NCBI GenBank assembly: GCA_039589315.1 | Contig: JBDHHQ010000111.1 | Span: 1-29,766 of the forward strand | Direction: 5' to 3' | DNA length: 29,766 nt | Source: Gemmatimonadota bacterium | GTDB lineage: Bacteria > Gemmatimonadota > Gemmatimonadetes > Longimicrobiales > Gaopeijiaceae | Shown here: positions 5,544 to 25,140 of the stretch, piece after piece | Numbering within the stretch: position 1 is the first letter of the stretch | Layout of the letters: every line of letters begins with the position of its first letter | Notes under the pieces: model-generated | The model's database searches: none | The model's input: the letters and a program-made list of their open reading frames with translations, nothing else | Told to the model about the DNA's origin: nothing | Program-made: the position numbers and the translations under genes

Positions 5544-8343
5544 TCAGTCGGTCTTCAACGCCTTCATGGGTTCTACCGAGGCGGCGCGGCGAGCCGGCAG
5601 ATACACCGCCAGCGCCGCCACTGCCACCAACACGAGCGGCACGCCGGCAAAGGCCACCGGGTCCAGCACGTTCACGTTGTAGAGCAGCCCCTTGACCAGC
5701 TGAGCCGCACCCGCCGCGCCGATCAAGCCGAGCACCGTCCCGATGACGGTCAACTTCATGCCCTCGCCCAGGACCTGTTTGAGCACGGCGGCCTTGCTGG
5801 CTCCCAGCGCGACCCGGATTCCCAGCTCACGGGTGCGCTGCGCCACCGAGTACGCCATCACGCCGTAGATCCCCACGGCCGCCAGGATCAGCCCCAGCAC
5901 GCCGAACATGCCAAGGACGGAGCCACCGAGCCGGGCCGGGAGCAGCGCGATACCCATGTGGTCCTCCATCGACCGCACGTCGTAGAGCGGTAGGTTGGGA
6001 TCTGCTGTCTGTACCGTCTCGCGAACCCGTCGCAGCACGCCCTGCGGGCTGGATGGGGTGCGCACGACCAGCGTCATGGCGAACGCGAAGCGCTCCCGAT
6101 GCGGCAGGTACATGTACTCGGTGGGCTCCTCGCCGAGGCTGTTGTATTTCCCGGTCTCGACCACGCCGACGACCTCACGGTCGGCGCCGGCCGTCTGGAC
6201 GATCTTCCCCAGAGCGGATTCACCGGGCCAGAATCGGTCCGCGAACCGCTCGTTGATGATGATCACGGGCGCCCCCGCCTCGTCGTCCTGTCGCGTGAAC
6301 CCACGGCCCTCGATGAGGTCGATGCCCATGGCCTCCAGGTAGCCCTCGGTCACGTAGGCGTAGTGGAGGCTGTTGCGCTCGCCCTCAGCGAACTCGTAGC
6401 CCGGGATGCCGACGCCACGATCCGAGGAGCCGAGGCCCAGCGGCAGCGTGGTCGTGAGTCCCACGCCGGTCACCTCGGGGAGGGCGCCGATCTGCTCCGC
6501 GAGTCGATCGAATAGCTCACGGGCCTGGGCCTGGTCGTAGCCCTGGAGACCGGGGTCGAGCGAGGCCACGACCAGGTTGCCAGGCTCGTCGAAGCCGGGA
6601 TCGATCTCCGTCGCCCCCTGCAGGCTTCGCAGGAAGAGGCCGGAGCTGATCAGCAGCAGGAGCGACAGCGCCATCTGGAGCACCACGAGTCCGCTGCTGA
6701 CCCTGGAGCGGCCGGCTTTGGGGCTGGACTCGCCCTTCACCGCCGAGACCGTATCGGGATGGGCGGCCTGGAGGGCCGGTGCGAGGCCGAAGATCAGCCC
6801 CGCCAGGACCGAGACGACCAGCGTGAAGAGCAGCACCCGGCCGTCCATGGGGATGTTGAAGTCGAAGGGCCCGTCGATGGGCGGGCGAAACTGGCCCAGC
6901 ATGCCCATGGCCACGCGGGCGATACCCAGCCCTACCAGACCGCTCAACAGGCTGAACAGGACGCTCTCGGTCAGGAGCTGTTGGATCAGTCGGCGACCCC
7001 CGGCGCCCAGGCTCAGGCGGATGCCCATCTCCCTCCGTCGTTCCCGGGCGCGTGCCAGGAAGAGGTTGGCCACGTTCACGCACGCGATGAGCAGCAATAG
7101 GCCCACGACCACCATCATCACCGTGCTCATGCCCAGCTGCGCGCTCTTGAAGCTGGGGTGGATCCCGGCCTCCATCTGCGGCACGAGCGTCGTGCCCAGC
7201 TGGCTCTCGTAACCTTGAGCTGCAGGAGGACGGCGTCGAGCACCTGCGCCGCCCGCTCCACGGTTGCCCCGTCCCGCAAGCGCGCAACCATCGTCATCAT
7301 GTTGTTGCCCCGGGACTCGATCAGGTCGCGACCGGGCATCGCTTCCCGCTGCATCATGATCGGCACGTAGATCGGGACGACGGCGAAGTTCACGGGGCCA
7401 CGGAAGTCCTCGGGGACCACGCCCACGATCTCGAACGGATGACCGTTGAGGATCAGACCACGCCCACGATCTCGAACGGATGACCGTTGAGGATCATCGT
7501 CTGTCCGACGACCGAGGGGTCCCCCCCGAAGCGGGATTGCCAGAACGCGTGGCCCAGGATCGCCACCGGGTGCGCGCCGGGATCCACGTCCTCCACGCCG
7601 GGGATGAAGGCTCGGCCCAGATAAGGCTGCACCCCGTAGGTCTGGAAGAAGTTGGCGCTGACCATCATGCCGATGGTGCGCTCACTCCGCTCATCGGAGG
7701 AGACGGACAGCGGCACCAGGTTCCAGGCCGAGACGCTCTCGAATGCCTCTCCCGTACGGTCCCGGATGGATTGGTAGTGGGGTATGGAGGTGGAGCCGAA
7801 CTCGATGCCGGCCCACTGGCGGTACACCTGCACGAGCTCGTCCACGTCGCGGGCACCGTCCAGCGGACGGAGCATGATCCCGTTCACGGTGGAGAACGTC
7901 GCCGCATTCAGGCCGATGCCCAGTGCCAGCGTCATGACGGCCGCGATCGTGAAGAGAGGGCTCTTCACGAGCATGCGAACGCTGTACCTCAGGTCCCGCA
8001 GTAGGTCACCCATCACCAACTCCCCCCGCTCTCCAGTGCTCAGTCTCTCGTGGTAGGGGCCGGAGCCGCGCGCCCCGCCATTCCCGACCGATGTGGTGCC
8101 GCTCGCCCTGATCCGCGCAGCCGCCTTCGCGTCCTCGGTCCGCATGCGCAGCACCGACGGAATGACGTCCAGCGTCGCCCTGGCCCAGAAGACGGGAGCC
8201 GCCATGACTCCGCCCGTCGACGAGGCGAGCCGGCCCCGCTCCACGAAGTCGTGGATCATCTCCGGGCCGTAGCGCCGGCGGAACTCCGCCGGATAGAGGC
8301 GAATCGTCAGCCGGTAGAACGTCAGCGCGAGGCGGGAGGTCAT
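5544..8343 (-). pseudogene. ADOP / MacB-FtsX-like duplicated ABC permease, split into three frames (8343-7453, about 7455-7212, about 7211-5544)
   Basis: N-terminal LYPAEFRRRYGPEM and DLRYSVRMLVKSPLFT..A..TLALGIG. The FtsX-type motif occurs twice (LLLIACVNVANL..AR..RE.GIRLSLGA; GIYGVMAYSVAQRTRELGIRVALGA) and the protein ends EPMKALK. A 41-bp tandem duplication creates a stop, and a second frameshift lies near 7212. It could be an intact gene with sequence errors. Confidence 0.88.
7415..7496. repeat. Perfect 41-bp tandem duplication (7415-7455 = 7456-7496)
   Basis: gaccacgcccacgatctcgaacggatgaccgttgaggatca appears twice back to back. Confidence 0.97.
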
Positions 8344-8808: not shown

Positions 8809-9028
8809 GATTCAGAGTCGGAGCCCCTCGTGGGACGAGCGGCGCAGGGGGCGGACCAGCTGGCCCGCCAGTCTTCCGGCGAAGGCCCGCCACGCGCAGC
8901 CCCCGCTCTTGTTGCGGACTTCGGTCCCGCCCCATGTTCGGGCCACGCCTGGAGCACGCGCCGCCCGGACCCGGTCCGACAGGAGCGCTTCGGACCTCGA
9001 CTCGGACCCTCTCCCCGCGAGCGATCCA

Positions 9029-10051
9029 GTGACCCCACCCCTCCGCATTGTCCACCTCGAACCGCTGCCGGAGTGGATTCAGGGCTTGTACGAGAACCTC
9101 ATGGCCGAATCGGAGCTCAGCCTCGAGTGGGCTGGACACGTTCCGGACGACGCCCTGGCCGACGCCGTGGCCGGCGCCCACGTGCTGGTCACGGGAAAGC
9201 GTGCAGTGGATGGCCCGTTGATGGCTGCCGCGGGGCCTAACCTGCGGTTCATCCAGGTGGTCGGGCGGGCGCCGTGGTCCGTCGATCCCGCCGCGGCGTA
9301 CCGCGAGGGCGTGCAGGTCTCGGTGGTGCCGCACAATGGCGCCATCGCCGTGGCCGAGCACACGATGGCGTTGATGCTCGGGGTCATGAGGCAGCTCGCT
9401 CCCGGCCACGCCGGCACCCGGGACGGGACGTACCGGGACCTGGGTCTCGAGCCCGAGCCCACGGACGAGCGGAACATCGCCTACAACTGGCTGAGCCTCG
9501 AGGGGGTGCGATTGCTCCACGGGAAGAGGCTCGGGCTCGTCGGGCTGGGCCACATCGGTCTGGAGGTGACGAGGCGAGCCCAGGCATTCGACATGGAGGT
9601 TCACTACCACAAGCGCCACCGCCTGCCCGCCGAGCACGAGCGCCTGGCGGACGTCACGTACGCTCCGTTCGACGAGCTCCTGGCCCAGAGCGACGTCGTG
9701 AGCCTGCACGTCCCTCACACCTCCCACACCGAAGGGCTCGTGGACGCTGCCGCCCTGGGGCGCATGAAGCCCACGGCGGCGCTCGTCAACACCGCCAGAG
9801 GTGGACTCGTGGACGAAGCCGCGCTCGTGCGGGTCCTGCGCGAAGGTCGCATCGCGGGTGCGGGTCTGGACGTGTTCGTCGACGAGCCCGTGCCGGCCGA
9901 TCACCCTCTGCTGACTCTCGACAACGTGCTGCTGGCGCCCCACATCGGCGGGGCCGGAGGCACGGGCCAGAAGGGATCCGCGGCCGCGGTCATCGCCAAC
10001 CTGGAGCGGCTGGCTCGGGACGAGACGCCCGGCGGGCTCGTGACCCCGTGA
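9029..10051 (+). CDS. D-isomer-specific 2-hydroxyacid dehydrogenase
   Basis: AVAEHT, Rossmann GLVGLGHIG, DVVSLHVP, VNTARG (Arg), GLDVFVDEP (Glu) and APHIGG (His). The GTG 9029 start is approximate. Confidence 0.9.
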   Translation: MTPPLRIVHLEPLPEWIQGLYENLMAESELSLEWAGHVPDDALADAVAGAHVLVTGKRAVDGPLMAAAGPNLRFIQVVGRAPWSVDPAAAYREGVQVSVVPHNGAIAVAEHTMALMLGVMRQLAPGHAGTRDGTYRDLGLEPEPTDERNIAYNWLSLEGVRLLHGKRLGLVGLGHIGLEVTRRAQAFDMEVHYHKRHRLPAEHERLADVTYAPFDELLAQSDVVSLHVPHTSHTEGLVDAAALGRMKPTAALVNTARGGLVDEAALVRVLREGRIAGAGLDVFVDEPVPADHPLLTLDNVLLAPHIGGAGGTGQKGSAAAVIANLERLARDETPGGLVTP

Positions 10052-10159: not shown

Positions 10160-11305
10160 GTGATCTCGGATCCGCTCCTGCTGCTGGCCTTCATGTTGGC
10201 CGTGGTGGCCTTCACCCGCTGGCTGGAGCGTAAGTACGAGTGGGTCGAGCGGATCAGCTCGGCCGTTGTCTGCACGCTGCTGGGAATCGCCCTGGCGAAC
10301 CTGGGCGTGATCCCTCACACGTCGCCGACCCACGAGGCCGTCTTCACGTACGCGGTCCCGTACGCCATCGTCCTCGTGATCCTGGGCTCGGACCTACGGG
10401 AGCTGGTGAACGCAGGCCGCCCCATGATCCTGGCGTACCTGGCCGCCGCTCTCGGGAGCTTCGTCGGCGGGCTCGCGGCAGGGCTGGTCTTCAACCCCTG
10501 GGTAGGGCCGGAAACGTGGAAGCTGAGCGGCGCGTTCTCGGGCGCCTTCGCCGGCGGAGGGATGAACTTCGCTGCGGTGGGGCAGGGCCTGGAGATCGAC
10601 CCGAGCACGTTCGCGGCGGCGGCCGTGGCGGACAATCTCTCCACCGTGCCGTACCTGCTCTTTCAGGTGGCGCTGGTGTCCCTTCTCGGCGCCGTGTTCC
10701 TCCGCCGAAGCCGAACGCCCGCGACGGCCCACGACCTGGAGCCGGACCAGGATCCCACGGCGCTCCGCAGGGTGTGGACCCACGCCGAGGTCAGCATCAC
10801 CGATCTGTCGATCCTCGGCGCCATCCCCCTCGCGGCGCTCTGGGTGGCCCGGCAGCTCGGCAACGTCTTCCCGGTCATCCCCGAGGTCCTGTGGCTCACG
10901 ACGCTGGCGTTGGTCCTGGCACAGCTCCCCTGGGTACGACGGCTCCGGGGTGCCGAGATGGGGTCCTACTTCGCCCTGCACATCTTCTTCATCGTGCTGG
11001 GGGCGGCCTCGGTCATCGCCGAGGTGATGGAGGCGGGGCTCCCCATCTTCGCCTTCATGTTCGCCATCATCGGGATCCACGTGCTGGTCGTGTACGGATT
11101 GGGCTGGCTCATGCGCATCGACCTGCCCACGGTATCGCTGGCCAGCCAGGCCGCCATCGGGGGGCCGGGGTCGGCGCTGGCGCTCGGCATGGCCATGGGA
11201 TGGCACAAGCTGGTCATGCCGGCGATCATCGTGGGGATCTTCGGCTACGCGTTGGGCAACTACCTGGGCTTCGCGTGCGCCTACCTGGTCAACGCAGCCC
11301 TCTGA
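10160..11305 (+). CDS. DUF819 family multi-pass membrane protein (putative transporter)
   Basis: About 10-11 hydrophobic segments. Motifs LANLGVIP, GGGMNFAAV, AVADN, ASQAAIGGPGSA and GYALGNYLG. Confidence 0.82.
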   Translation: MISDPLLLLAFMLAVVAFTRWLERKYEWVERISSAVVCTLLGIALANLGVIPHTSPTHEAVFTYAVPYAIVLVILGSDLRELVNAGRPMILAYLAAALGSFVGGLAAGLVFNPWVGPETWKLSGAFSGAFAGGGMNFAAVGQGLEIDPSTFAAAAVADNLSTVPYLLFQVALVSLLGAVFLRRSRTPATAHDLEPDQDPTALRRVWTHAEVSITDLSILGAIPLAALWVARQLGNVFPVIPEVLWLTTLALVLAQLPWVRRLRGAEMGSYFALHIFFIVLGAASVIAEVMEAGLPIFAFMFAIIGIHVLVVYGLGWLMRIDLPTVSLASQAAIGGPGSALALGMAMGWHKLVMPAIIVGIFGYALGNYLGFACAYLVNAAL

Positions 11306-11308
11306 GGC

Positions 11309-12115
11309 ATGACGGACTCCCTGGCCGCGTGGGACGCGGCGGTCACGGGTGCAGGCCGCGGGTTGGGAAGAGGCGTCGCACGGGCGTTGGCCCGGACCGG
11401 GATGCGGGTGTGGATTTGCGCCGACCACGAGGCCGAGCTGGAGCGCACCGCCGCCCTGATCGCCGGGGAGGGGGGAGATGCCCGCCCCTGTGTGGTGGAC
11501 CTGGCCGATCCGGAGCAGTGCGCCGCTTTCGCGGATCTGGTGGGCGAGGGGGCGCAGCGTCTGCGGACGCTGGTGAACAATGCGGCCGTGCTGGAGAGGG
11601 TGGCCGTGGAGCACCTGTCCCTGGACCGTTGGAATCACACGCTCGCCGTGAACCTCACCGCGCCCTTCCTTTTGGCCCGGGATCTGGTGCCTCGGCTGGA
11701 CCCGTCCGGCGGATCGGTGATCAACGTGTCCTCCATGGCCGGAGTCCGGCCTACGGCCTTGGAGTCGGCGTACTGTGCGTCCAAGTTCGGGATCGAAGCG
11801 CTGACCCGCTGTCTCGCGCTCGAGCTGCGGGACCGTCCGGTCAGCGTCAATACCATCACGCCGGGAATCCGGATCAAGCCGACGTCCCTCACCGAGGAGC
11901 AGGTCTCGGCGGTGGCCCCGCAGGAGCGGCGACAGTGGAACGATCCCGACCGCATCGCGCCGGCCTTTCTGTGGCTCGCGGGGTTGCGGGGAGAGGTCAG
12001 CGGGTGTCGCTTCGACGCACGCGAGCTCACCGAGGCGCTGGAGCGGCACGGCCCGGATGAAACGCTGAACAGAATCCATCAACTCGACGAGGCGCGGAGC
12101 GCAGAGTGGTTCTAG
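11309..12115 (+). CDS. Short-chain dehydrogenase/reductase (classical SDR)
   Basis: TGAGRGLG, LVNNAA, NVSS, YCASK (YxxxK) and VNTITPG. Confidence 0.9.
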   Translation: MTDSLAAWDAAVTGAGRGLGRGVARALARTGMRVWICADHEAELERTAALIAGEGGDARPCVVDLADPEQCAAFADLVGEGAQRLRTLVNNAAVLERVAVEHLSLDRWNHTLAVNLTAPFLLARDLVPRLDPSGGSVINVSSMAGVRPTALESAYCASKFGIEALTRCLALELRDRPVSVNTITPGIRIKPTSLTEEQVSAVAPQERRQWNDPDRIAPAFLWLAGLRGEVSGCRFDARELTEALERHGPDETLNRIHQLDEARSAEWF

Positions 12116-13023
12116 AGCAGAACAGGAAGGTCATTCGCCAGAGGCCGCAGGCGCGAGCCCTGGCCCAGCGGATGAGGGGGCTGCGTGGTCCGGCGGAGGG
12201 GACGCCACGCGACGGTGCCCCGGAGCGCGAGTCCCCGTTCTCGGTGAAGCTGGTGCTGTACCTGAAGAAGCACCTCGACGCTGGCGAGACCCACTACACG
12301 GCCCGTCCCGGGATGGTGGCGCTGCGGCGGCGCCTGGCCGACGCGTTGGCTGGGCTCGGCGCTCCGGCCCGTGATCCCGACGGGATCCTGATCACGGCAG
12401 GAGAGGGGGAGGCGGTGTTCGCGTGCCTCCTGGCATTCGGCTACGGCCCGGGCGACCAGGCTCGATTCTCGGGCCGGTGGCAGCGCCACGCGCGACTCCT
12501 GGACATGATGGGCGTGACCGTACTCGACGAGCCTCCGGAAGCTCCATTGGAGGAGTGGCGGCTGCTACCCCCGCCACGGGCCGCCCAGGGAGCCTCTCCT
12601 CCCAGCGACGCTGCGGAGTCCGCCGTCGCCTCGGGTGTGCCGAGCTCGGATGCGGCAGCGCCCAGCGGTGGCGTCCCGGAGGAGGGCATGAGCGCGTCGG
12701 CTGCACCGGCGACGGACACGCCCTCCAGCTCGGCCACGAGCCCGCGCCGCCCCGTGCCCATCGTCTGTCTCGGCGACGTCTTCGGTGCGGGCTCCGGCGA
12801 GCTTCCGGAGCTGAACCGGGACGCGATCTACGTGGGCAATCTCGACGGGCTGCCCGAGATGGACATGTTCGGCCTCGGCTTCGTGGCAGGATCGCCCGAG
12901 TGGATCAAGCGGATCATGACGTGGAAACAGGCCTTCTCCATCTGCAGTCCTGCACCGTCGCAGAGGGCGGCGTTGCTGGCTTTCGAGCGCTGGGACGAGC
13001 GGCAGGCCGAGGCCGGCCCATGA
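12106..13023 (+). CDS. Degenerate class I/II aminotransferase-fold protein (no PLP lysine, no C-terminal small domain)
   Basis: HYTARPGMVALRRRLA, ILITAGEGEAVF and KQAFSICSPAPSQRAAL align with class I aminotransferases. The SK motif is replaced by DG. The frame is uninterrupted and overlaps both neighbouring genes. Confidence 0.7.
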   Translation: MVLEQNRKVIRQRPQARALAQRMRGLRGPAEGTPRDGAPERESPFSVKLVLYLKKHLDAGETHYTARPGMVALRRRLADALAGLGAPARDPDGILITAGEGEAVFACLLAFGYGPGDQARFSGRWQRHARLLDMMGVTVLDEPPEAPLEEWRLLPPPRAAQGASPPSDAAESAVASGVPSSDAAAPSGGVPEEGMSASAAPATDTPSSSATSPRRPVPIVCLGDVFGAGSGELPELNRDAIYVGNLDGLPEMDMFGLGFVAGSPEWIKRIMTWKQAFSICSPAPSQRAALLAFERWDERQAEAGP

Positions 13024-14174
13024 GTAACCAGACGGCGCGGGCGGGCGAGCGGGCCACGTCGATACGCTACCGGATGATGGAGCTGGCGTCCCAGATGGAG
13101 GACGTCATCTCACTGGGACGCGGGGACCCCGATCTGGATACGCCGCAAGAGATCCTGGATCTCGTGCCGCCCCGGGCGGAATACTCCGCCCCGCGGAGCC
13201 CGGTGCAGGGCCTCCCGGAGCTCAGGCGCGCCGTGACCCACCGCTACGCCGAGGAGCAGTTGCTGGACCTGGATCCGGAGCGGTGTTGCCTGATCACCAA
13301 CGGTGCCCAGGAGGCGTTGTTCCTGGCGATGCTGGCGCTGGTGGACCCGGGGGACAGGGTGGCGACCCACGACCCCCGCTACTCGTCGTACGACCAGGCC
13401 GTGGGTGCCGCGGGAGGCACGCTGATCACGATTCCCACCCTTCCGGAGCACGACTTCCGGCTCCAGCCCGAGGCGGTGCGAGAGCACGCGGAGGGGACCA
13501 AGCTCCTGGTGTTCGTGAACCCGAACAACCCCACCAGCGCCCACGTCGAGCCCGCAGGCGTCAAGGCCATCGCCGAGGTGGCCCGGGAGATGGACATGCT
13601 GGTGGTCTACGACGAGATCTACGGCGACTTCGTCTACGACGGCGTTTCCTTCCAGTCCATGGCCGCCTGCCCCCTCATGCAGGAGTGGACGGTGACCATC
13701 GGCGGGTTCTCCAAGACGTACGCCATGACGGGCTTCCGCGTGGGGTACCTGATCGGGGAGCCACCCTTCATCCAGGCGGCCACCGCCCTGAAGGCCGCGA
13801 TCTCGGGCCCGTGCCCGAAGTTCTCCCAGCAAGCGGCGCTGGCCGCCATGGACGTGCGCCCGGACCCCAGACCCCGGTTCCGGGAGATCTACGACAGCCG
13901 CCGCAAGCGGATGATGGCCGGGCTGGACGCCATGGGCGCCCGGTACAGCCATCCGGGAGGTGGCCTCTTCGTCTGGGCCGACCTGTCGTCGTTCGGGATG
14001 GAGACCGAGGAGTTCTGCTACAGACTCCTGGAGCAGACGGGCGTGCTGGTCTTCCCCGGCGCCTCGTTCGGGCGGCGGTGGCGGTCCTGGGTGCGCATCT
14101 CGCTCCTGGCCCCGGACGATCGGATCGACGAGGCGTTGGCTCGGATGGAGCGGTTCGTGGGAGGGTTGGCGTGA
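13020..14174 (+). CDS. PLP-dependent class I/II aminotransferase
   Basis: VISLGRGDPD, ITNGAQEAL, VNPNNPT, YDEIY, GFSKTYAMTGFRVGY (K232) and WVRISL. ATG overlaps the upstream stop (ATGA). Confidence 0.92.
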   Translation: MSNQTARAGERATSIRYRMMELASQMEDVISLGRGDPDLDTPQEILDLVPPRAEYSAPRSPVQGLPELRRAVTHRYAEEQLLDLDPERCCLITNGAQEALFLAMLALVDPGDRVATHDPRYSSYDQAVGAAGGTLITIPTLPEHDFRLQPEAVREHAEGTKLLVFVNPNNPTSAHVEPAGVKAIAEVAREMDMLVVYDEIYGDFVYDGVSFQSMAACPLMQEWTVTIGGFSKTYAMTGFRVGYLIGEPPFIQAATALKAAISGPCPKFSQQAALAAMDVRPDPRPRFREIYDSRRKRMMAGLDAMGARYSHPGGGLFVWADLSSFGMETEEFCYRLLEQTGVLVFPGASFGRRWRSWVRISLLAPDDRIDEALARMERFVGGLA

Positions 14175-15577
14175 GCGAGCTGGTGATTCAGGGCGGCACC
14201 CTCGTGGACGCCCGGCGCTCCGAGCCTGCCGATCTACTCATCCGCGACGGCCGGATCGTGGCCCGGGGGGCGGCGGCCACCGAGCAGGCGAGCGGAGCGC
14301 CCGAGATGGACGCCACCGGCCTGCTGGTCATGCCGGGAGGGATCGACACGCACACGCACATGGCCCACCCCATCGACCGGATGGGCATCACCACGGCCGA
14401 CGACTTCCACACCGGAACCGTGGCGGCGGCGTGCGGCGGCGTGACGACCATCATCGACTTCGCGCTCCAGCGGAAGGGCGACCGGCTGGCCGACGTCATG
14501 GAGCGGCGGCTGGAGGAGGTGGCGGCCGACGCCGTGGTCGACTACGGCCTGCATATGATCGTGACGGACGTCCGGGACGACGTCGTCGCGGAGGTGCCGG
14601 AGCTGATCGGCGCGGGCCATCCGTCGTTCAAGATCTACATGACCTACGCGGACAAGGTCGTCCACGACGAGGCGCTCCTGCGGGTGCTGGAGGCCACGGC
14701 CGACAACGGCGGCCTGGTCTACCTCCACTGCGAGAACGACTGCGCGGTGAACCACCTGATCCACCGGTTCCTGGAGGCCGGCCACACCCAGCCAGCCTAC
14801 CACGCCCGCAGCCGTCCACCCCAGGTGGAGGCCGAGGCCACCAACCGGGCCATCCTCCTGGCCGAGGTGGTGGGCGCGCCGATCTGCATCGCCCACGTGA
14901 CGTCGGCCGAGGCCGCGGAGGCGGTGGCGCGGGCCAGAGACCGGGGCATCGCCGTGGCGGGCGAGACGTGCCCGCAGTACCTGGTGCTCACCGAGGACCG
15001 GTACCACGACAACGGCGACTTCGAGGCAGCCAAGTACGTGTGCAGTCCCCCGCTGCGCCCCGCCGGACACCCGGAGGCCTTGTGGTCGGCGCTGGGTGAC
15101 GGCTCGCTTCAGCAGGTGTCGTCCGACCACGCGCCTTTCCGCTTCGCCGACCAGAAGACCCAGGGCCGGGACGACTTCACGCGCATCCCCAACGGGCTCC
15201 CGGGGGTCGAGACCAGGCTGCCGATCCTGTTCAGCGAGGGCGTGACGACCGGGCGCATCTCGGCAAACCGCTTCGTCGAGCTGGTCTCCACCAATCCCGC
15301 CCGCATCTTCGGGCTGTACCCCCGGAAGGGGTCGCTGGAGGTGGGGGCCGATGCCGACCTGGTGTTCTTCGACCCCCAGGCCCAGGCGGTCGTGGACGCC
15401 ACCGATCTGCACTCCGCGGTGGACTACAACCCATTCGAGGGCATGAGGCTGAAAGGGCTCCCGGTCCTGACCATCTCCCGAGGCGAGGTCGTGGCCCGGG
15501 ACGGGGAGCCCACTGCGGTGCGGGGACGGGGACGGCCGGCCGAGCGCTCGCGCGTGTCCGCGGCGGCACTGCCGTAG
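14171..15577 (+). CDS. hydA: Dihydropyrimidinase / D-hydantoinase (cyclic amidohydrolase)
   Basis: PGGIDTHTHM (HxH), GGVTTIIDF, SFKIYM (carbamylated Lys), HCEN, AHVT, ETCPQYL, KYVCSPPLR, SDHAPF and IPNGLPGVETR. GTGA overlap with the upstream gene. Confidence 0.9.
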   Translation: MSELVIQGGTLVDARRSEPADLLIRDGRIVARGAAATEQASGAPEMDATGLLVMPGGIDTHTHMAHPIDRMGITTADDFHTGTVAAACGGVTTIIDFALQRKGDRLADVMERRLEEVAADAVVDYGLHMIVTDVRDDVVAEVPELIGAGHPSFKIYMTYADKVVHDEALLRVLEATADNGGLVYLHCENDCAVNHLIHRFLEAGHTQPAYHARSRPPQVEAEATNRAILLAEVVGAPICIAHVTSAEAAEAVARARDRGIAVAGETCPQYLVLTEDRYHDNGDFEAAKYVCSPPLRPAGHPEALWSALGDGSLQQVSSDHAPFRFADQKTQGRDDFTRIPNGLPGVETRLPILFSEGVTTGRISANRFVELVSTNPARIFGLYPRKGSLEVGADADLVFFDPQAQAVVDATDLHSAVDYNPFEGMRLKGLPVLTISRGEVVARDGEPTAVRGRGRPAERSRVSAAALP

Positions 15578-15767: not shown

Positions 15768-16781
15768 CTAACCCTCAGCCCGCTCCGGCAGCAGGTCGTC
15801 CCGCACCTCGTCGATGATCCCGAAGAAGCAGCACCACTCCCCCTCCAACACCGCCGGTCGAGAGCGGAGCCCGAAGATGACGCCGTCGACCGGGGCCGTG
15901 ACCTCGGCGGCCACGTCGCCGTAGAGGTCGTAGACCCTGCCGAGCAGGCTTCCCGCGGGTACGGGCTCCTCGAAGGGCACGTCCGCGCTCCCGACCCACA
16001 TCCCAGAGGCCGGAGCCAACAGGGCCTGCTGATGGCCGGTGCGCCACCGATCGGCGTACGCCGCCTCTCCATCGATCATGTCGTAGTGCCGCAGGACGTT
16101 CAGGTAGCTGTCCGACAGCTCCCGGGCCACGGCGTGGAAGTCGGCTCCGAGGGTTCGGCAGTTGCCGCCTAGCTCCACGGTGATCCCGCCACCCCCCAGA
16201 GCCCCGATCTTCGACGAGGGGTTGTTGCCGCCCACGCCGGTCTCGAAGACCAGGTCCCATTGGGGTCCCATAGCCGCAGCCAGCTCCATGCTCTCGGGGT
16301 TCCCCGCCGCGAAGATCATGCGTGCCAGGTAGGAGTGCTCCCCGCCGGAGTGAATGGCGATCTGGAGGTCGCACGCGTCCTTCATGGCCGACCAGTGGGC
16401 CCACGCGGCGCGCTCCGTCGGGTAGCCGTCGGCCCGCCCCGGGTAGATGCGGTTCATGTCGTAGCTGAACGTGTCGAGGGGATTGCCCCGCTCGCCAGCC
16501 TGGAACGCAGGCACGTTCATGGCCGGAACCGCGACCACCGTTCCGTGCACGCCCGCCGGGTCCAGAGCCGCGAGGGTCAGGTGGATCGAGAACGCCCCCT
16601 CGGGCTCGTCGCCGTGGGTGCCGCCGTTGAGCCAGAGCACCGGGCCCGGCTCGGCGCCCCGGATCACGACGATGGGGATCTCCTCGGGAGTTCCGTCCGG
16701 CCGCGCGCCCACCGGAATGCCCCCGCGGACGGTGGTGCCCGGGGCCGGGGCCGCGCTGCCGATCTGGATGCGGTCGGTCAT
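15768..16781 (-). CDS. M14-like succinylglutamate desuccinylase / aspartoacylase (AstE/AspA family) deacylase
   Basis: GGTHGDE (Zn ligands), DMNRIYPG, IHSGG, ITVELGG and a C-terminal barrel-sandwich-like segment (APASG...APVDGVI). ATG at 16781. Confidence 0.85.
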   Translation of the reverse strand: MTDRIQIGSAAPAPGTTVRGGIPVGARPDGTPEEIPIVVIRGAEPGPVLWLNGGTHGDEPEGAFSIHLTLAALDPAGVHGTVVAVPAMNVPAFQAGERGNPLDTFSYDMNRIYPGRADGYPTERAAWAHWSAMKDACDLQIAIHSGGEHSYLARMIFAAGNPESMELAAAMGPQWDLVFETGVGGNNPSSKIGALGGGGITVELGGNCRTLGADFHAVARELSDSYLNVLRHYDMIDGEAAYADRWRTGHQQALLAPASGMWVGSADVPFEEPVPAGSLLGRVYDLYGDVAAEVTAPVDGVIFGLRSRPAVLEGEWCCFFGIIDEVRDDLLPERAEG

Positions 16782-16881: not shown

Positions 16882-17982
16882 TCAGTCCGGATTCGGCAGC
16901 GGATCCGGCACTGGATCCGGAAAGCTGAGCCCGACCTCACGACCCAGCTCTGCGACCTGGTCGACGGTGGTCAGAGCAACGGGAATCCCGTCGCGGAACC
17001 GCGTATGGGCCCGGCGCTGCTCGATCTCGCCCGGCAGCATGACGGGCCGCCTGATATCCAGCGGTGGCGCTGACTTCACCTCGTCGATGAGCCGAGCCAG
17101 ACGGCCGTTGAACGTCGGTCGGTCCATGAAGCAGTCCGGATCGATGGCGATCAGGACGTGGCCCACGTCGAAGTGCGTATCGTCCTGGAAGACGGAGCGG
17201 CCGAAGAGCGAGCCGGTCAACACGCCGCACAGCACGTCGGTGACGAGGCTCAGTCCGTACCCCTTGTAGTCGCCCACCGGGAGCAGGGGACCGTCGTTGG
17301 CCGCGACGGGATCGGTGGTCCGCCGGCCCTCCGCGGTCAGGGCCCAGTTGTCCGGCATGGGCAGGCCCGCACGGGCGAGCCAGCGGATCATCCCCTTGCC
17401 GGACTGGGTCAGCGCCATGTCGAGGACGATGGGGTCGTGCCCGCCGCCCCGGGGAACGGCCAGGCCCCAGGGGTTCGTGCCCAGCACCGGCATGGCGGAT
17501 CCCCACGGTGCCATCTCGGCGCCGGCGTTGGTCATGGCCAGGCCGATGAAGCCGTCCCGCGCGGCGTGGAGGGCGTGGTAGCCGGCTACGCCGAAGTGGT
17601 TGCTGTTCCGCACCCCCACCATGGCGATGCCTCTGCCCCGGGCCTTTTCCGTGGCAGCGGCCATGGCACGGTGTGCCGACACGTAGCCGAAGCCCTTGCC
17701 CGCGTCTATCAGGGCGGACGCCGGGGAGTCGTGGATCCTCGCCATCTCGGCCCGGGTGACGATGCCCCCGTTCCGGATGCGGCGTGCGTAGCGGATCAGC
17801 TTTTCGAGGCCCTGCCCCTGACCGGGATGCCACCAGCTGCTCGCCGTGACGAGCCCGTCCGCCACGATGCGCGCTTCGTCCGCACTGGCGCCCAGCGCCG
17901 CGAGGTAGTCCTCGACGAACTCCCGCAACAGGGGCTCCGGATACCGCGCGACGGGGTCGTCGTCGGTGAGCCAGTACGTCAG
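16882..17982 (-). CDS. Ldh_2 family (type 2 malate/L-lactate, AllD/ComC-like) oxidoreductase
   Basis: VRNSNHFGVAGY, GTNPWGLAVP, IVLDMA, GDYKGYGL and MLPGEIE. The start is uncertain: CTG 17982 follows a GGAGGA RBS, and the alternative is GTG 18006. Confidence 0.85.
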   Translation of the reverse strand: MTYWLTDDDPVARYPEPLLREFVEDYLAALGASADEARIVADGLVTASSWWHPGQGQGLEKLIRYARRIRNGGIVTRAEMARIHDSPASALIDAGKGFGYVSAHRAMAAATEKARGRGIAMVGVRNSNHFGVAGYHALHAARDGFIGLAMTNAGAEMAPWGSAMPVLGTNPWGLAVPRGGGHDPIVLDMALTQSGKGMIRWLARAGLPMPDNWALTAEGRRTTDPVAANDGPLLPVGDYKGYGLSLVTDVLCGVLTGSLFGRSVFQDDTHFDVGHVLIAIDPDCFMDRPTFNGRLARLIDEVKSAPPLDIRRPVMLPGEIEQRRAHTRFRDGIPVALTTVDQVAELGREVGLSFPDPVPDPLPNPD

Positions 17983-18878
17983 AACGCGTCCTCCGGAAAG
18001 GCCCACGAGTGTGCGTGGGGCTGGATGAGCTCGACGGTCATGCCGGGTAGCTGGTCCGGGTAGACGAAGGCCTCCAAGCCGTCGTTGGCGTCGAAGACGG
18101 TGTCCCCGAAGAAGGGGACGCCTCGGAACCGCAGATGCGCCACGTCCTCCTCGATGTCGGCCGTCTGCAGGGCGATGTGGTCGAGCCCCTCGCCGCGGGT
18201 GCTCAGGAAGCGGTTCACGCGGGACTCGGGGTTCCAGTTCTGGACCAGGTGCAGCCAGGTCTGGTTCGGGAAGAGGATCCGGGCGTCGAGCTGGAAGCCC
18301 TTGCCCTGGTCGCTCCGGAAGTCCCGCGCCTTCAGGCCGAACAGGCGCTCGAACCGCTCGCAGGACTGGTGCAGATCCTCCACCACCAGGCCCAGGTGGT
18401 GAAGGCGCAGGAGGCTCATGTCACGGGTGAGCGGCTGGTCGACGGCGTCCGCCGGATACACCCAGGCACGCTCATGGGACTGGATCAGCTCGATGGTCAG
18501 CCCCGGGAGCTGATCCGGGTAGACGAAGGCCTCGAAGCCGTCGTTCGCGTCGAAGATCCTGTCCTCGAAGATGGGAACGCCCACTTCCCGCAGGTGGGCG
18601 ACGTCGCCCTCGATGTCATCGGTCTCGATGGCGATGTGCTCGAGCCCCTCGCCCTTCTCCCGGACGAAGCGGTTCACGCGGGACTCGGGGTTCCAGTTCT
18701 GGACCAGATGCAGCCAGCACTCGTTGCCCAGGAGGATCCTGGCGTCGAGCTGGAAGCCACCACCCTGATCGTCCCGAAAGTCGCGCGCTTTCAGCCCGAA
18801 GACGCGCTCGAAGCGTGCGCACGCGTCCTGAAGGTCGTGGACGCAGATACCGATGTGCTGCACGCGCAGAAAGGTCAT
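17979..18878 (-). CDS. VOC / methylmalonyl-CoA epimerase-like protein made of two tandem near-identical domains
   Basis: Each half has HIG..V.DL, GEGL.HIA..T.DIE, AFVYP and ELIQ, as in the MMCE-like VOC fold. The halves are offset by 153 codons. Confidence 0.85.
   Translation of the reverse strand: MTFLRVQHIGICVHDLQDACARFERVFGLKARDFRDDQGGGFQLDARILLGNECWLHLVQNWNPESRVNRFVREKGEGLEHIAIETDDIEGDVAHLREVGVPIFEDRIFDANDGFEAFVYPDQLPGLTIELIQSHERAWVYPADAVDQPLTRDMSLLRLHHLGLVVEDLHQSCERFERLFGLKARDFRSDQGKGFQLDARILFPNQTWLHLVQNWNPESRVNRFLSTRGEGLDHIALQTADIEEDVAHLRFRGVPFFGDTVFDANDGLEAFVYPDQLPGMTVELIQPHAHSWAFPEDAF
18207..18707. repeat. Identical 42-bp blocks (18207-18248 and 18666-18707) inside the duplicated VOC gene
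   Basis: gaagcggttcacgcgggactcggggttccagttctggaccag occurs at both sites, 459 bp apart. Confidence 0.92.
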
Positions 18879-19420: not shown

Positions 19421-20344
19421 TCAGCGCTCGGCCGGAGCTCTGGAGAGGAGCGAGCGGAGCTGGTAGGGGATGAGCCAGCGGTAGTACTCGGGGATGAACG
19501 GCATGGCGAAGCCGGCGCGGAGCCACTGGAGGCGTGGCATCCGGTCTCGGTACATGTTGCGGTAGCGGTGCCGGTACGTCCGCCACCCCTTGGCCCGCAT
19601 GGCGTCCCGCACCTCGACCCAGTGGCGGGGATTCCGGCGGGCGAAATCCTGGAGCACGGGGTCGTTGTCCAGGGCATCCAGCCAGGTCTTGATGTCGGCG
19701 GCCAGCTCCCACGGCGACGCCTTGAGGCCCTCGCTCGACTCGTACCAGCGGTTCCCGAACACCGCTTCGGGTGCGTGCGCGACTTTGTGCCCCAGCGCCA
19801 GCTTGAGGGCGAGCAGGTCGTCGTCGCCGTTCACCATCTCGGTGTAGCCGCCGATGGCGCGGATGTCGGCCACCCGGGCCATCATCGTGATGAAGTTCCA
19901 GAACCCGTATTTGCCGTCGATCCACATGCGGACGAACTCGACACCGCTGAACGTGTCGGGTGGCGTCTTGGCAGACCCGGTCGACGGCCGCACCGACCCG
20001 TCCTCGTCGAGCACGTCCACCCGCGGCAGTGAGAGCCGGACCTCCGGGTCGGCGTCCAGGCGGGCAGCGAGCGTCGAAACGAAGTTGGGGCTGATCTCGT
20101 CGTCGTCGCTCAGAAGCGTGTGGTACTCGCCCTCGGCATGCTCCACGAGCTGGTTGAAGTGGATCGACATCGGCACGGTGGCGTCGTTCCGGCGGAAGCG
20201 GAACGGCCGGTCGTAGTGCTCCTCCACGAGCTCCCGGACCTCGGGCCCGTTCTCGCCGTTGTCCGATACCAGCAGATCGATCTCGGGGTAGTCCTGGGCC
20301 GCCACCGACGCCACCGCGCCGGGCAGGAAGACGGGGCGGTTCAA
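19421..20344 (-). CDS. Glycosyltransferase family 2 (N-terminus possibly truncated)
   Basis: NRP..L..AVASVAAQDY, LVSDNG, HFNQLVEHAEGEY and LSDDD (DxD-like). The usual first beta-strand before (L)NR is missing. Confidence 0.8.
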   Translation of the reverse strand: MNRPVFLPGAVASVAAQDYPEIDLLVSDNGENGPEVRELVEEHYDRPFRFRRNDATVPMSIHFNQLVEHAEGEYHTLLSDDDEISPNFVSTLAARLDADPEVRLSLPRVDVLDEDGSVRPSTGSAKTPPDTFSGVEFVRMWIDGKYGFWNFITMMARVADIRAIGGYTEMVNGDDDLLALKLALGHKVAHAPEAVFGNRWYESSEGLKASPWELAADIKTWLDALDNDPVLQDFARRNPRHWVEVRDAMRAKGWRTYRHRYRNMYRDRMPRLQWLRAGFAMPFIPEYYRWLIPYQLRSLLSRAPAER

Positions 20345-20369
20345 GGACCGACCCCTCCGCTCCCGGACC

Positions 20370-21618
20370 TCAGAGCCCGATCCCCTCGTACCGGGTGAAC
20401 GCCGAAGGGTCGAGCATCCTCCGGCCGTCGATCACCAGGGGTGGATTCTCCCGCCCGTTGATCAGCCCGGCGAGCCGGTCGAACTGGTCGGTCCGCTTCG
20501 TGGGCCGCCACCGGGTCGAAGGCACGGACTCCGGCGCCCCGCTCCCGCAGATAGCGGACGATGGGCAGCGCCGGCGATTCCCGGACGTCGTCGGTGCCCG
20601 GCTTGAAAGCCAGTCCCAGGACGGCCACTTCGACACCGTCCAGCTCCGGGAAGTGCCGCTCGAGGCGCTCCACCATCTGCATGGGCTGGTCCGCGTTGAT
20701 GCGGATGACCTGTTCCAACAGCCGCATGGGCGAGCCCGCCTCTTCGCCCCGGGCGATGAGTGCCTTCACGTCCTTGGGGAAGCAGCTTCCGCCGAACCCG
20801 CAGCCCGCCTCCAGGTACGAGACGAAGCCTGGGCGCATGCGCTCGCCGTTCTCCAGCACGGGCATGAACCGGCGATCGAGGTGGAATCCCTCCTGCACCT
20901 GAACCACGTCCACGTCGCCCAGGGCAGCGCACATGTTGCCGATCTCGTTGGAGAACGAGATGAGCGTGGCCAGCAGCGAGTTGGCCGCGTACTTGATCAT
21001 CTCGGCCGTCTTGCAGTTCACCTCCAGGATCCGAGTGCTCTCGAATACCTGGTACAGCCTGCGGATTCTGGCCGCCGCCTGCGGATCCGTGGCCCCGATG
21101 ACGATGCGGTCCGGGTTCATGAAGTCCTCGACGGCCTTGCCCTCGCGGAGGAACTCGGGGTTCATCCCCACGCCCAATCCCTCGCCCACCTTCCGGCCCG
21201 ACGCCTCTTCGAGGATGGGCGCCACCACGTCGTCCGTCGTGCCCGGCACCACGGTGCTCTTGACCAGGACGACATGGGGCTCGTCGGAGCCGGCCAGGGC
21301 CTCGCCGATTTGCCTGGCCGCCGTGCGGATGTAGGTGAGGTCGATGCGGGCGCCGTCGAAGGGGGTTCCCACCGCGATCATGGTGAGCTCGCTGCCCTGG
21401 ACCGCGCCGGTCAGCTCCGTCGTGGCTCGGAGCCGGGGGCCCACGTTCCGCCGAAGCAGCTCGTCGAGGCCTTCCTCGTGGATGGGCGCCTCGCCGCGGT
21501 TGATCCGCTCCACCTTGTCCGCGTCGATGTCGACGCACGTCACGTCGTGGCCCTTCTCGGCCAGGCACACGCCGGAGACGAGCCCGACGTAACCGGTTCC
21601 GATGATGGCGACCTTCAT
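20370..21618 (-). pseudogene. ugd: UDP-glucose/GDP-mannose 6-dehydrogenase, with a frameshifting deletion near 20490
   Basis: MKVAIIGTGYVG, IAVGTP, KSTVVPGT, NPEFLREG, GFGGSCFPKD and LGLAFKPGTDDVRESP. After FDPVAAHEA the normal C-terminus (DQF...VIDGRRML...YEGIGL) continues in another frame. Confidence 0.88.
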
Positions 21619-22748
21619 CAGCGTTCCTCCGCGGTCTGATTCTCGCGGTACCAGATCAGCGCCCGGCGCACACCGTCGTGGACCTCCACCGTGGGGTCGT
21701 ACCCCAGCTCCCGGCGGGCCTTGTCGATCACCGGGCAGCGGCGGTTGGGGTTGTCGGTGAGGTACTCGGCGTCGTCCGACACTCCGATGACCACCCGTCC
21801 CTCGTACCCGAAGAGCTCCCTGGCCGCGTCCACCGTGATGTGGGCGAGCTTCTTCATGGAGATCTCGGGGCTCTCCTTGCCGATGTTGTACGGCTCGCCC
21901 GCCCGGCCCCGCGTCAGGACCTTGTAGTAGCCGCACACGGCGTCCGCCACGTAGCAGAACGTGCGGGTGGGGGCGCCGTCAGAGAGCATGACCACGTTCT
22001 GGCCGCTCAGGATGTTGCGGGCGAAGTCGGGGAGGACCCGGGCGTCCGTGATCTTGAGCCCGGGACCGTAGTTGTTGAACGGCCGCGCCATGGCGATGGG
22101 CAGGTCGTACTGCCGTGCGAAGTTGACGCACAGCGTCTCGCCGTAGCGCTTGGACTCGTCGTAGCACGCCCGGGGGCCCGTGCACGACACGTTGCCCCAG
22201 TACTCCTCGCTGGTCGGGATGAACTGGGGCAACGGGTCGCCGTAGATCTCGCTGGACGAGAAAAACAGGAAGCCCGCCGTCTCCTTGCCCGCCTCCTGCT
22301 GGGCCAGGAAGTAGTCGAGCAGGGTGCGCAGGCCGTTCACGTTCCCGTCCATCGTGCCGATGGGGTCCTTGCGGTAGTAGATGGGCGACGCGATCGACGC
22401 GGCGTGCACGATGTAGGGGTAGTCCGCCATGCCGTCGGGGAGCGGGTCCCGGATGTCGTGCCGATCGAGGGTGATCCACTCCGACCGGTCGGCGACGTCG
22501 GTGAGCCACTGGGGCTGGCCCCGCACGAAGTTGTCGAACACGGTCACGCGTATGCGTCGCGCCACGTCCATCTGGCTGTTCCAGCGGTCCACGGACTGAA
22601 CCAGGTAGTAGCCCAGAAAGCCCGCGCCGCCGACGATCAGGAGGTTCTTCCCCTCCAGGCGGCCGAATTCCTCGGCCAGGTTGCCGCAGATGTAGTCGAG
22701 ATCCTCGGAGACCACCTCGGCCGCCGTGACGGGTTGGGTCAGACGCAT
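21618..22748 (-). CDS. NAD-dependent epimerase/dehydratase (UDP-glucuronate decarboxylase-like extended SDR)
   Basis: GGAGFLG, HAASIASP..Y, SSSEIYGDP, GPRACYDESKR, RPFNNYGPG and TRTFCYV. Confidence 0.88.
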   Translation of the reverse strand: MRLTQPVTAAEVVSEDLDYICGNLAEEFGRLEGKNLLIVGGAGFLGYYLVQSVDRWNSQMDVARRIRVTVFDNFVRGQPQWLTDVADRSEWITLDRHDIRDPLPDGMADYPYIVHAASIASPIYYRKDPIGTMDGNVNGLRTLLDYFLAQQEAGKETAGFLFFSSSEIYGDPLPQFIPTSEEYWGNVSCTGPRACYDESKRYGETLCVNFARQYDLPIAMARPFNNYGPGLKITDARVLPDFARNILSGQNVVMLSDGAPTRTFCYVADAVCGYYKVLTRGRAGEPYNIGKESPEISMKKLAHITVDAARELFGYEGRVVIGVSDDAEYLTDNPNRRCPVIDKARRELGYDPTVEVHDGVRRALIWYRENQTAEER

Positions 22749-22818
22749 GGGCTCGCCGTCACTCCGTGTCGTGTCGTCAGGTGTCGCAGGTCAGCGCCCG
22801 GTTCGTGGGGCGTCCGTG

Positions 22819-22849
22819 ATCGTATCGCGACGGGGGCGCGTGTTTGCAA
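22819..22849 (-). promoter_or_regulatory. Possible internal promoter upstream of the epimerase-ugd-GT2 genes
   Basis: Minus strand TTGCAA-N19-TACGAT in the 113-bp gap. The -10 is good but the spacer is long. Confidence 0.35.
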
Positions 22850-22861
22850 GAAGCGCGCCCG

Positions 22862-23683
22862 TCAGTCTTCCGACGGCGGGTGGAAGGGCGACTCGCCCCG
22901 GGCCAGCGCCCCCGACGCCCGGGCCAGGTCGGCGGGCGTGCCGATGTCGATGCAGCGCCCGTCCCGAAAGGTCACCGTCTCCACGGGAATCCCCGCGTCG
23001 ATGGCCGCCTGGAACACGTGCCCCACCTTGACCTCCCGACGCTCTGCGCCGGCCGCTACCCCCAGCTCCACGGTCTCCAGGTGCTGGTGGAGGAACTCGG
23101 TGAAGACCGGCGTCCACACCGCCGCGTTCCACGTGTACACCAGCTCCGTCTCATCGGGCCAGAAGAGGATCCGTGCCACGCGCGAACCGTCCAGCTCCAC
23201 CATCTCGTCGTCGGGTGGGTGGGGCGCGGGGAAGAGGCCCAGAACCAGGTCCGCGCCGGTGGTGGCCTGGTGCTCGGCCACCTGGCGGAGGGAGTCGTCG
23301 GGGCTCAGCAGGATGTCCGGGAAGCCGAACGCGACCCGGGCGTCCGCCACGAAGGGACGGGCCTGGTCCACCGTGTAGGCGGGGCCGTGGGGGACGGCCG
23401 CCACGAGGTAGGCCAGGTCGATGCCCACGTCGCGGCCGTCACCGTAGTACTGGGGGATGTCCCATTTGCCCGGCCGGAGCACCATGTAGGCGCGTGTCAC
23501 GCCGGCCTCCCGCATGGCAGCCAGAAGGTAGCTGCTCACCACCCGGGGCTGGCTTCCGCTTCTGGGGTCGCCGTGGAACCCCACCGGCAGGATCTCTTTG
23601 CTGCACGGGATCGGCCCCAGGCGACGGCTGAGCCCGCCGGCCGGGATGATGCCGATCAGCGGCATGGAGTCGTGATCAGCCAT
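22862..23683 (-). CDS. Sugar-phosphate nucleotidyltransferase (dTDP-glucose pyrophosphorylase-like)
   Basis: IIPAGGLSRRLGPIPCSKEILPVG signature, GKWDIPQYYGDG, FGFPDIL and IDIGTPADL. Confidence 0.85.
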   Translation of the reverse strand: MADHDSMPLIGIIPAGGLSRRLGPIPCSKEILPVGFHGDPRSGSQPRVVSSYLLAAMREAGVTRAYMVLRPGKWDIPQYYGDGRDVGIDLAYLVAAVPHGPAYTVDQARPFVADARVAFGFPDILLSPDDSLRQVAEHQATTGADLVLGLFPAPHPPDDEMVELDGSRVARILFWPDETELVYTWNAAVWTPVFTEFLHQHLETVELGVAAGAERREVKVGHVFQAAIDAGIPVETVTFRDGRCIDIGTPADLARASGALARGESPFHPPSED

Positions 23684-23689
23684 GGGAGC

Positions 23690-25006: not shown

Positions 25007-25140
25007 GTTCAGCCCTCCCGGGCCGTTGGGTCGTTGCGAAGACGCGGGGGCTCCCCCCGGCGGCTGACGTTCTCGGTGCTCGGCGGCCACCAGGGGCCGA
25101 CCACCCGGCGAGGCGGGTGTCCGAGGCGGCCCGGTGGCGC

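Follow-up and report, generated by a model that had tools for sequence, protein, structure and literature searches.

The closest described counterpart of the system reported here is SerTA (Ser4/Ser5) of Serratia sp. ATCC 39006, which has subunits that are not soluble alone, one active site per heterodimer, and an essential arginine (Arg191*) contributed by the catalytically dead subunit (PMC11726168). Its authors present it as the first heterooligomeric aminotransferase to be studied (PMC11726168), and a 2022 review states that there is little knowledge of whether distinct aminotransferase monomers assemble into heteromultimers and that the interface tyrosine of class I enzymes, which acts on the pyridoxal phosphate (PLP) phosphate of the partner subunit, is approximately 90% conserved (PMC9309667). 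Here, we analyzed a 29,766-nt stretch of DNA from a Gemmatimonadota bacterium (contig JBDHHQ010000111.1 of assembly GCA_039589315.1; “the window” denotes this whole stretch), which carries two adjacent aminotransferase-like genes, A and B. Their sequences and the structural models suggest that A and B are likely to form a single enzyme, an obligate heterodimer that has one active site.

In homodimeric class I aminotransferases, each chain carries both the cis-acting and the trans-acting residues, and each dimer has two sites. An intact paralog of this kind, designated C, is encoded elsewhere in the window's genome (G000:C17, L086:8067–9239, minus strand) and has both motif sets on one chain. 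The product of gene B belongs to PF00155 (200.2 bits against a cut-off of 19.7) and has the NPNNP motif (residues 167–171), the DEIY motif (198–201), K232, R240, and R359; K232, D198, N170, Y201, R240, and R359 were invariant in all 65 aligned B sequences. At the column of the interface tyrosine, however, the window B has R59, and the tyrosine was at its canonical place in none of 98 distinct B sequences (one further sequence, L064, was left out owing to a frameshift). Gene A, which starts with GTG, encodes H63-Y64 at this place, has Gly248 at the column of the Schiff-base lysine and G256 at the arginine column, and stops short of the small domain. The initial annotation had described these residues, the coordinates of both genes, and their overlap correctly. 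It had also described both replacements by glycine as features of A; the loss of the lysine proved to be family-wide, but the arginine is retained in 39 of the 65 A sequences. Likewise, NPNNP and DEIY are indeed gone from A as motifs, but the aspartate of DEIY persists as D224 and is present in 38/65 sequences.

The division between the two subunits was measured against 118 near-full-length C homologs (among 120 listed), in which 142 positions were at least 95% conserved. At a threshold of at least 90%, 72 of these positions were kept only in B, 6 only in A, 9 in both, and 55 in neither. The six A-only positions (L59, G62, H65, Y66, I270, and C271 in C numbering) are those of the tyrosine loop and the SIC loop, the latter of which we take to be the trans-acting 292–297* loop of aspartate aminotransferase (positions 296–297*), a numbering that no paper found confirmed. 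The canonical tyrosine was present in 118/118 C and 65/65 A sequences and in 0/98 B sequences. C shares LGRGDPD and arginine positions with B, and the GETHY and K..SIC loops with A. On sequence evidence, A and B retain complementary halves of the active-site residues of an aminotransferase, as the initial annotation had proposed. Its predictions about the sequences held, with one refinement here: the second trans loop of B shows conservation rather than decay, in a form of its own, with K258, G263, and P266 invariant and S262 in 63/65 sequences. R63 of B is also nearly invariant. The tyrosine segment spans 26 residues in 118/118 C sequences, whereas in B its length is variable, with insertions visible up to approximately 25 residues (the shortest values may be pattern mis-hits). 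Tyr55 of B was considered as a substitute tyrosine and rejected, since only the window and locus L006 carry it.

These data suggest a mechanism in which PLP would form its Schiff base with K232 of B, and D198, Y201, N170, R240, and R359 of B would do the cis work, roles that are familiar from the family. Binding of PLP by A in the usual way is impossible judging from its sequence, which has no lysine, no NP.NPT, and no small domain. A would instead occupy the place of the partner subunit, giving Y64 to the PLP phosphate of B, and its R67, Q275, I279, and C280 would line the wall of the substrate pocket. The tyrosine loop of B itself would face the dead site of A, and this may be why its length varies freely.

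Homologs of A were found as 40 proteins including A itself at E ≤1e−3 (187–305 amino acids), at five metagenome loci, and in 234 genome stretches; the titles of the best 80 stretches, which were those examined, were mostly of Gemmatimonadota and Acidobacteriota. Most of the 65 aligned sequences were approximately 30–45% identical to the window A, and 24 columns were invariant, including G60, T62, H63, Y64, R67, G69, W273, K274, S278, I279, C280, and P284–R287. As predicted, the tyrosine and K..SIC were retained in 65/65 sequences and the catalytic lysine in 0/65. A search of the PDB with an A-family profile returned class I aminotransferases, the best being MJ0684 (E = 8e−18), and A aligned with B at 24% over 237 columns (E = 1e−5). 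In the AlphaFold2 model of A (predicted local distance difference test [pLDDT], 74.1), the folded core was confident and most of residues ~150–190 scored below 50; Foldseek matched the model to the class I aminotransferase fold (E = 1e−8). Because the profile matches and the fold neighbors of the model agree, A is a genuine fold-type I derivative that carries a disordered insertion. It lacks the catalytic lysine, the small domain, and the Pfam score of ordinary class I/II enzymes. The low-complexity Ser/Ala/Pro stretch of A is variable or deleted among relatives, most of which are shorter here.

These irregularities, namely, the variable length, the low-complexity middle, and the absence of any Pfam match, are what would be expected if A were a pseudogene, a decaying duplicate. 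Conservation and selection already contradict this explanation, and we regard it as very improbable: the reading frames are open, the 24 columns are invariant over 65 sequences, and the core of the model is confidently folded. The ratio of nonsynonymous to synonymous substitution rates (dN/dS) of A was below 1, as anticipated, in 17/18 pairs (0.22–0.63; 0.29 for the window and L006), by the Nei-Gojobori method, which is rough for GC-rich DNA, and with close relatives chosen by hand. The eighteenth pair was nearly identical (dS 0.005) and gave 2.19. Across the same 17 pairs, the dN/dS of B was 0.05–0.22. Purifying selection acts on A.

The genes for A and B are also closely linked. B directly follows A at 83/85 loci, in agreement with the initial prediction that A homologs would lie beside B-like genes, as 74 pairs of separate genes (71 near complete, the other 3 truncated where the contig ends) and 9 in-frame fusions; at the remaining two loci (L059 and L079), the contig ends at or just past A. 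A 4-nt overlap was present in 43 of the 71 separate pairs. Among 251 genomes of the window's phylum, A and an adjacent B occurred in the same 15, and no genome had B without A. Fusions of A to B were present in 27 of 101 Acidobacteria-centered relatives of a fused-type genome (G251), these 27 including most of the first nine, and two further fusions (P0219 and P0225) are separated from the others in the phylogeny of both halves.

It is improbable that A acts as a stand-alone noncatalytic protein, such as a ligand sensor or scaffold, or as the partner of C rather than of B. C was found in 12 of the 15 genomes having A and B, in several of them 8–27 kb away, and the motifs retained by A match those of C. 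Against this, C has its own tyrosine and SIC loop (118/118) and was not found in three of the 15 genomes, and in the loci examined A was coupled or fused to B, never to C. No Pfam family above its cut-off, including any DNA-binding domain, was found in A, and a MocR/GabR-type regulator, which needs a winged helix and a PLP-binding domain, was rejected as an identity for A on this ground and on the absence of the lysine. The operon of C (L086, 3270–15606) is separate from that of A and B and encodes an ATP-binding cassette (ABC) transporter of the peptide type, an amidohydrolase, a Gfo/Idh/MocA oxidoreductase, and a 472-amino-acid protein whose counterpart at L087 had no NCBIfam match; a MocR regulator adjoins it.

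The packing of the two parts was modeled with AlphaFold2 on a natural fusion (L080, 6893–8773, 627 amino acids, 74-row alignment), which gave a pLDDT of 89.6 and a predicted template modeling score (pTM) of 0.92, with a low-confidence linker at 246–249. A pTM this high across the A and B parts implies that their packing is predicted to be fixed. The B half matched class I aminotransferases at a root-mean-square deviation (rmsd) of 1.9 Å, and also with Z 46.7, rmsd 2.1, and 379 aligned positions. No single-chain glycine decarboxylase spanning both halves was among the 50 structure matches listed. An A:B heterodimer performing other fold-type I chemistry on an amino acid (elimination, cyclization, or decarboxylation) is unlikely, although the best NCBIfam model of both B and A is the PLP cyclodehydratase GntC (NF041364), and the fold neighbors include C-S lyases and OrfR. 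The GntC scores (272.8 bits for B and 45.2 for A) are far below the cut-off of 415. Because GntC ranks only 29th by structure (Z 38.5, rmsd 2.2, 340 aligned, 19% identity) and true aminotransferases rank ahead of it, this top score was not taken as a function. The nearest solved sequences of B are aspartate and aromatic aminotransferases, and two clustered 2-hydroxyacid dehydrogenases would fit an oxo-acid product.

A belongs to a wider group of Lys-less proteins. When 1.84 billion representatives were searched with a profile, 59 matches were obtained at E ≤1e−30 and 399 at 1e−10, the latter including ordinary enzymes. Among 140 newly listed rows, 38 of 341–415 amino acids had tyrosine and K..SIC-type loops without the lysine, and many others of 150–290 amino acids were also Lys-less, some being fragments. 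In an 86-row tree built on 145 columns, which include trait columns, 48 A-like rows formed one group (100/94), and 47 of them lacked the lysine. In a tree of full-length rows, 20 long A-like proteins grouped with a Shimodaira-Hasegawa-like approximate likelihood ratio test support of 99, or 86 once the trait columns had been removed. Some of the full-length Lys-less proteins (P0214, P0216, P0218, P0220, P0242, and others) are named “aspartate aminotransferase” by their source. Cluster look-ups of such proteins gave one organism name, Ca. Dormiibacterota, and no adjoining genes; a plasmid search gave 13 matches at 29–33% identity to P0214 and none with P0227. In 301 Acidobacteria-centered genomes searched for full-length Lys-less forms, 23 of the 25 best loci had an ordinary lysine motif, and two were unparsed. 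At the other extreme, minimal A genes of 146 amino acids that keep the trans motifs, with the mid-domain deleted, precede B at L129 and L130. A similar gene at L131 belongs to a second copy in genome G253, where B is split over two frames.

Because the wider Lys-less clade groups apart in the trees, A did not arise by a recent duplication of B, and truncation in the A lineage seems to have recurred. According to the trees, an old duplication would have given a Lys-less lineage that was initially full length, was trimmed more than once to little beyond the interface (down to 146 amino acids), and on at least two occasions became fused to B. A broader proposition, which we slightly favor, is that A/B is the first obligate heterodimer of the aspartate aminotransferase family and a branch of a wide, unrecognized clade of Lys-less trans-donors annotated as ordinary aminotransferases. 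Living genomes would then hold every stage, from the intact homodimer through a full-length dead subunit and a 146-amino-acid interface cap to refusion as a single-chain, one-site enzyme, and the dead subunit would set specificity via R67 and I279/C280.

Several observations weigh against the A:B heterodimer. The split of residues is not clean: B retains K258, G263, P266, and mostly R63, which could serve a B:B interface, and many A sequences retain the dead-site aspartate and arginine. Tyr70 mutants of Escherichia coli aspartate aminotransferase stay partly active, and B alone need not be dead. The 14 positive genomes besides that of the window are of one family, overlap the set used to train the alignment, and are not independent; the loci were collected with A as the query, and B without A was testable only in the 251 genomes. 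B is frameshifted at L064 and L131. One fusion (P0187, 616 amino acids) has no tyrosine in its A half and a histidine in place of the lysine in its B half, and would be decaying or entirely noncatalytic. A lysine occupies the catalytic column in a single row of the Lys-less clade (P0274), and any B-like partners of the long Lys-less forms are hypothetical. The model of the fusion may also owe much to its likeness to solved homodimers. Some of these points favor an active B homodimer lacking Tyr70*, with A as an optional subunit that tunes stability, specificity, or rate through mixed dimers, and A does evolve faster than B in every pair. We nevertheless consider such a homodimer improbable, although less so than a partnership of A with C: the insertions in the tyrosine loop, set against the fixed segment of C, are hard to fit into the active-site entrance of a partner, no B without A was found in the 251 genomes, and the fusions impose a 1:1 ratio. 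The obligate heterodimer is retained as the most likely explanation.

Table 1. Features of the A-B locus and of related loci. Positions are those of the window unless a locus is named; neighbor counts are over 85 loci with limited flanks.
Feature	Position	Strand	Remarks
D-2-hydroxyacid dehydrogenase	8909–10051	+	First gene of the conserved operon; 71/85 loci; true start probably ~120 nt downstream
DUF819 membrane protein	10160–11305	+	Likely transporter; 79/85 loci
Short-chain dehydrogenase (SDR)	11309–12115	+	79/85 loci; end overlaps the start of A by 10 nt
Gene A	12106–13023	+	305 amino acids; truncated class I aminotransferase subunit lacking the Lys; predicted trans-donor
A, trans loop 1, G60–G69 (GETHY64..R67PG)	12283–12312	+	Y64 codon at 12295–12297
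A, low-complexity Ser/Ala/Pro stretch	12553–12744	+	In place of the large-domain segment that binds the pyridine ring (NPNNP region)
A, Gly248 (column of the Schiff-base lysine)	12847–12849	+	Lys in 0/65 A sequences
A, trans loop 2, W273–Q286 (WKQAFSIC..APSQ)	12922–12963	+	I279 and C280 retained by A, lost from B
Gene B	13020–14174	+	384 amino acids, PF00155; start within the stop codon of A (ATGA, 13020–13023)
B, lost tyrosine loop, residues 50–62	13167–13205	+	R59 at the Tyr column; length and sequence variable across the family
B, Lys232 (predicted Schiff-base lysine)	13713–13715	+	Invariant, 65/65
Dihydropyrimidinase/hydantoinase	14171–15577	+	TIGR02033, 552.8 bits (cut-off 393); 63/85 loci
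AstE/AspA-family deacylase	15768–16781	−	Convergent; 66/85 loci
Ldh_2-family 2-hydroxyacid dehydrogenase	16882–18006	−	47/85 loci; best model L-sulfolactate dehydrogenase, 232 bits, below the cut-off of 500
Two-domain VOC/glyoxalase protein	17979–18878	−	17/85 loci, often past the fetched flank
Minimal A gene, L129	2618–3058	−	~146 amino acids, directly before B
Minimal A gene, L130	1044–1484	+	~146 amino acids, directly before B
Minimal A gene, L131	~6560–7003	+	~146 amino acids, directly before B

The genes around A and B have a conserved order (Table 1): the D-2-hydroxyacid dehydrogenase, the DUF819 protein, the SDR, A, B, and the dihydropyrimidinase, with the deacylase and the Ldh_2 dehydrogenase convergent to them. 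At the nine fused loci, the deacylase lies inside the A-B operon, and no dihydropyrimidinase was found within the flank. The dihydropyrimidinase alone among the neighbors passed a specific family cut-off; the D-2-hydroxyacid dehydrogenase, the SDR, the deacylase, and the Ldh_2 protein fell below theirs. Promoter and terminator scans gave nothing above chance. It is possible, and proposed here only tentatively, that A:B is part of a catabolic uptake and breakdown pathway, in which an N-acylated or cyclic amino-acid derivative would be imported, the deacylase and hydantoinase would release the amino acid, A:B would transaminate it, and the two 2-hydroxyacid dehydrogenases would process the oxo acid. 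This pair of dehydrogenases may resemble the two-dehydrogenase racemization of sulfolactate. B has conserved Arg16, Arg34, and Arg120, the same three arginines being common to C, and together with Arg67 of A they hint at an anionic side chain of the substrate.

Elsewhere in the window, an exact 41-nt tandem duplication (7415–7496) frameshifts a MacB/FtsX-type permease behind a PadR gene, splitting it into open reading frames at 7453–8343 and 5544–7184 (minus strand); the break may be real or may stem from the assembly. A nucleotide-sugar cluster (19421–26427, minus strand) encodes a family 2 glycosyltransferase, UDP-glucose dehydrogenase, an epimerase, a nucleotidyltransferase, a class III aminotransferase, and a DRL/SAF oxidoreductase. 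In one relative (L099, 11691–19753), a purine-catabolism cluster, with genes for allantoinase, OHCU decarboxylase, HIU hydrolase, and xanthine-dehydrogenase-like subunits, lies just downstream of A-B; it was not seen as conserved.

In a literature search that missed most subscription journals, no precedent for a heterodimer in the aspartate aminotransferase family (class I) was found. The novelty of A/B is lowered because SerTA is a precedent: the heterodimer principle is already known from SerTA and serine palmitoyltransferase, and what appears undescribed is this family, its natural series of reduced forms, and the fusions. The initial annotation mentioned neither the SerTA precedent nor the wider Lys-less clade. 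If the proposed heterodimer is correct, A/B would be a second, independent heterooligomeric aminotransferase, in the best-studied class. The natural series of intact paralog, full-length dead subunit, 146-amino-acid cap, and fusion makes the route from a homodimer to an obligate heteromer by complementary loss directly testable. A group of misannotated proteins would also be flagged, each subunit of which would appear inactive alone in screens, and each natural fusion would provide a transaminase scaffold on one chain, allowing the two halves of its active site to be altered separately.

Compared with known systems, B shares its fold and cis residues, and A its GETHY and K..SIC loops, with homodimeric class I enzymes (the Thermus and Phormidium aspartate aminotransferases, the Pyrococcus aromatic aminotransferase, and MJ0684) and with C. 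The glycine decarboxylase P-protein with alpha and beta subunits (GcvPA/GcvPB) likewise derives from a fold-type I homodimer that became a heterodimer with one site, and a fused form exists, but it is a decarboxylase of another subfamily, and its dead half is not known to be trimmed to ~150 amino acids. In eukaryotic serine palmitoyltransferase, LCB1 and LCB2 are homologous subunits with the PLP lysine in only one of them and a single proposed site (PMC3794620). Unlike A/B, that enzyme is a membrane-bound alpha-oxoamine synthase, not an aminotransferase, and both of its subunits are near full length. The likeness to SerTA is closer. Both have tandem genes for a short, mostly large-domain partner without the catalytic lysine and a full-length subunit that has lost a dimer loop; in SerTA the dead subunit binds the PLP phosphate at the one active site of the heterodimer, and in A/B the short subunit would, by sequence, replace the lost trans loop. 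The donated residue differs, however, being a predicted tyrosine in A/B and Asn/Arg in SerTA. SerTA is annotated as a sugar aminotransferase, and its genes are part of a biosynthetic cluster of the amino-group-carrier-protein type, whereas A/B is a PF00155 system in a catabolic-type operon; no DegT/DnrJ (sugar aminotransferase) match was found in B at E 0.01, no carrier-protein cluster gene among the window reading frames scanned, and no SerTA-type short chain when the PDB was searched with the profile of A. We infer that A/B arose independently of SerTA, and its sequences suggest that it works like SerTA without belonging to the SerTA family.

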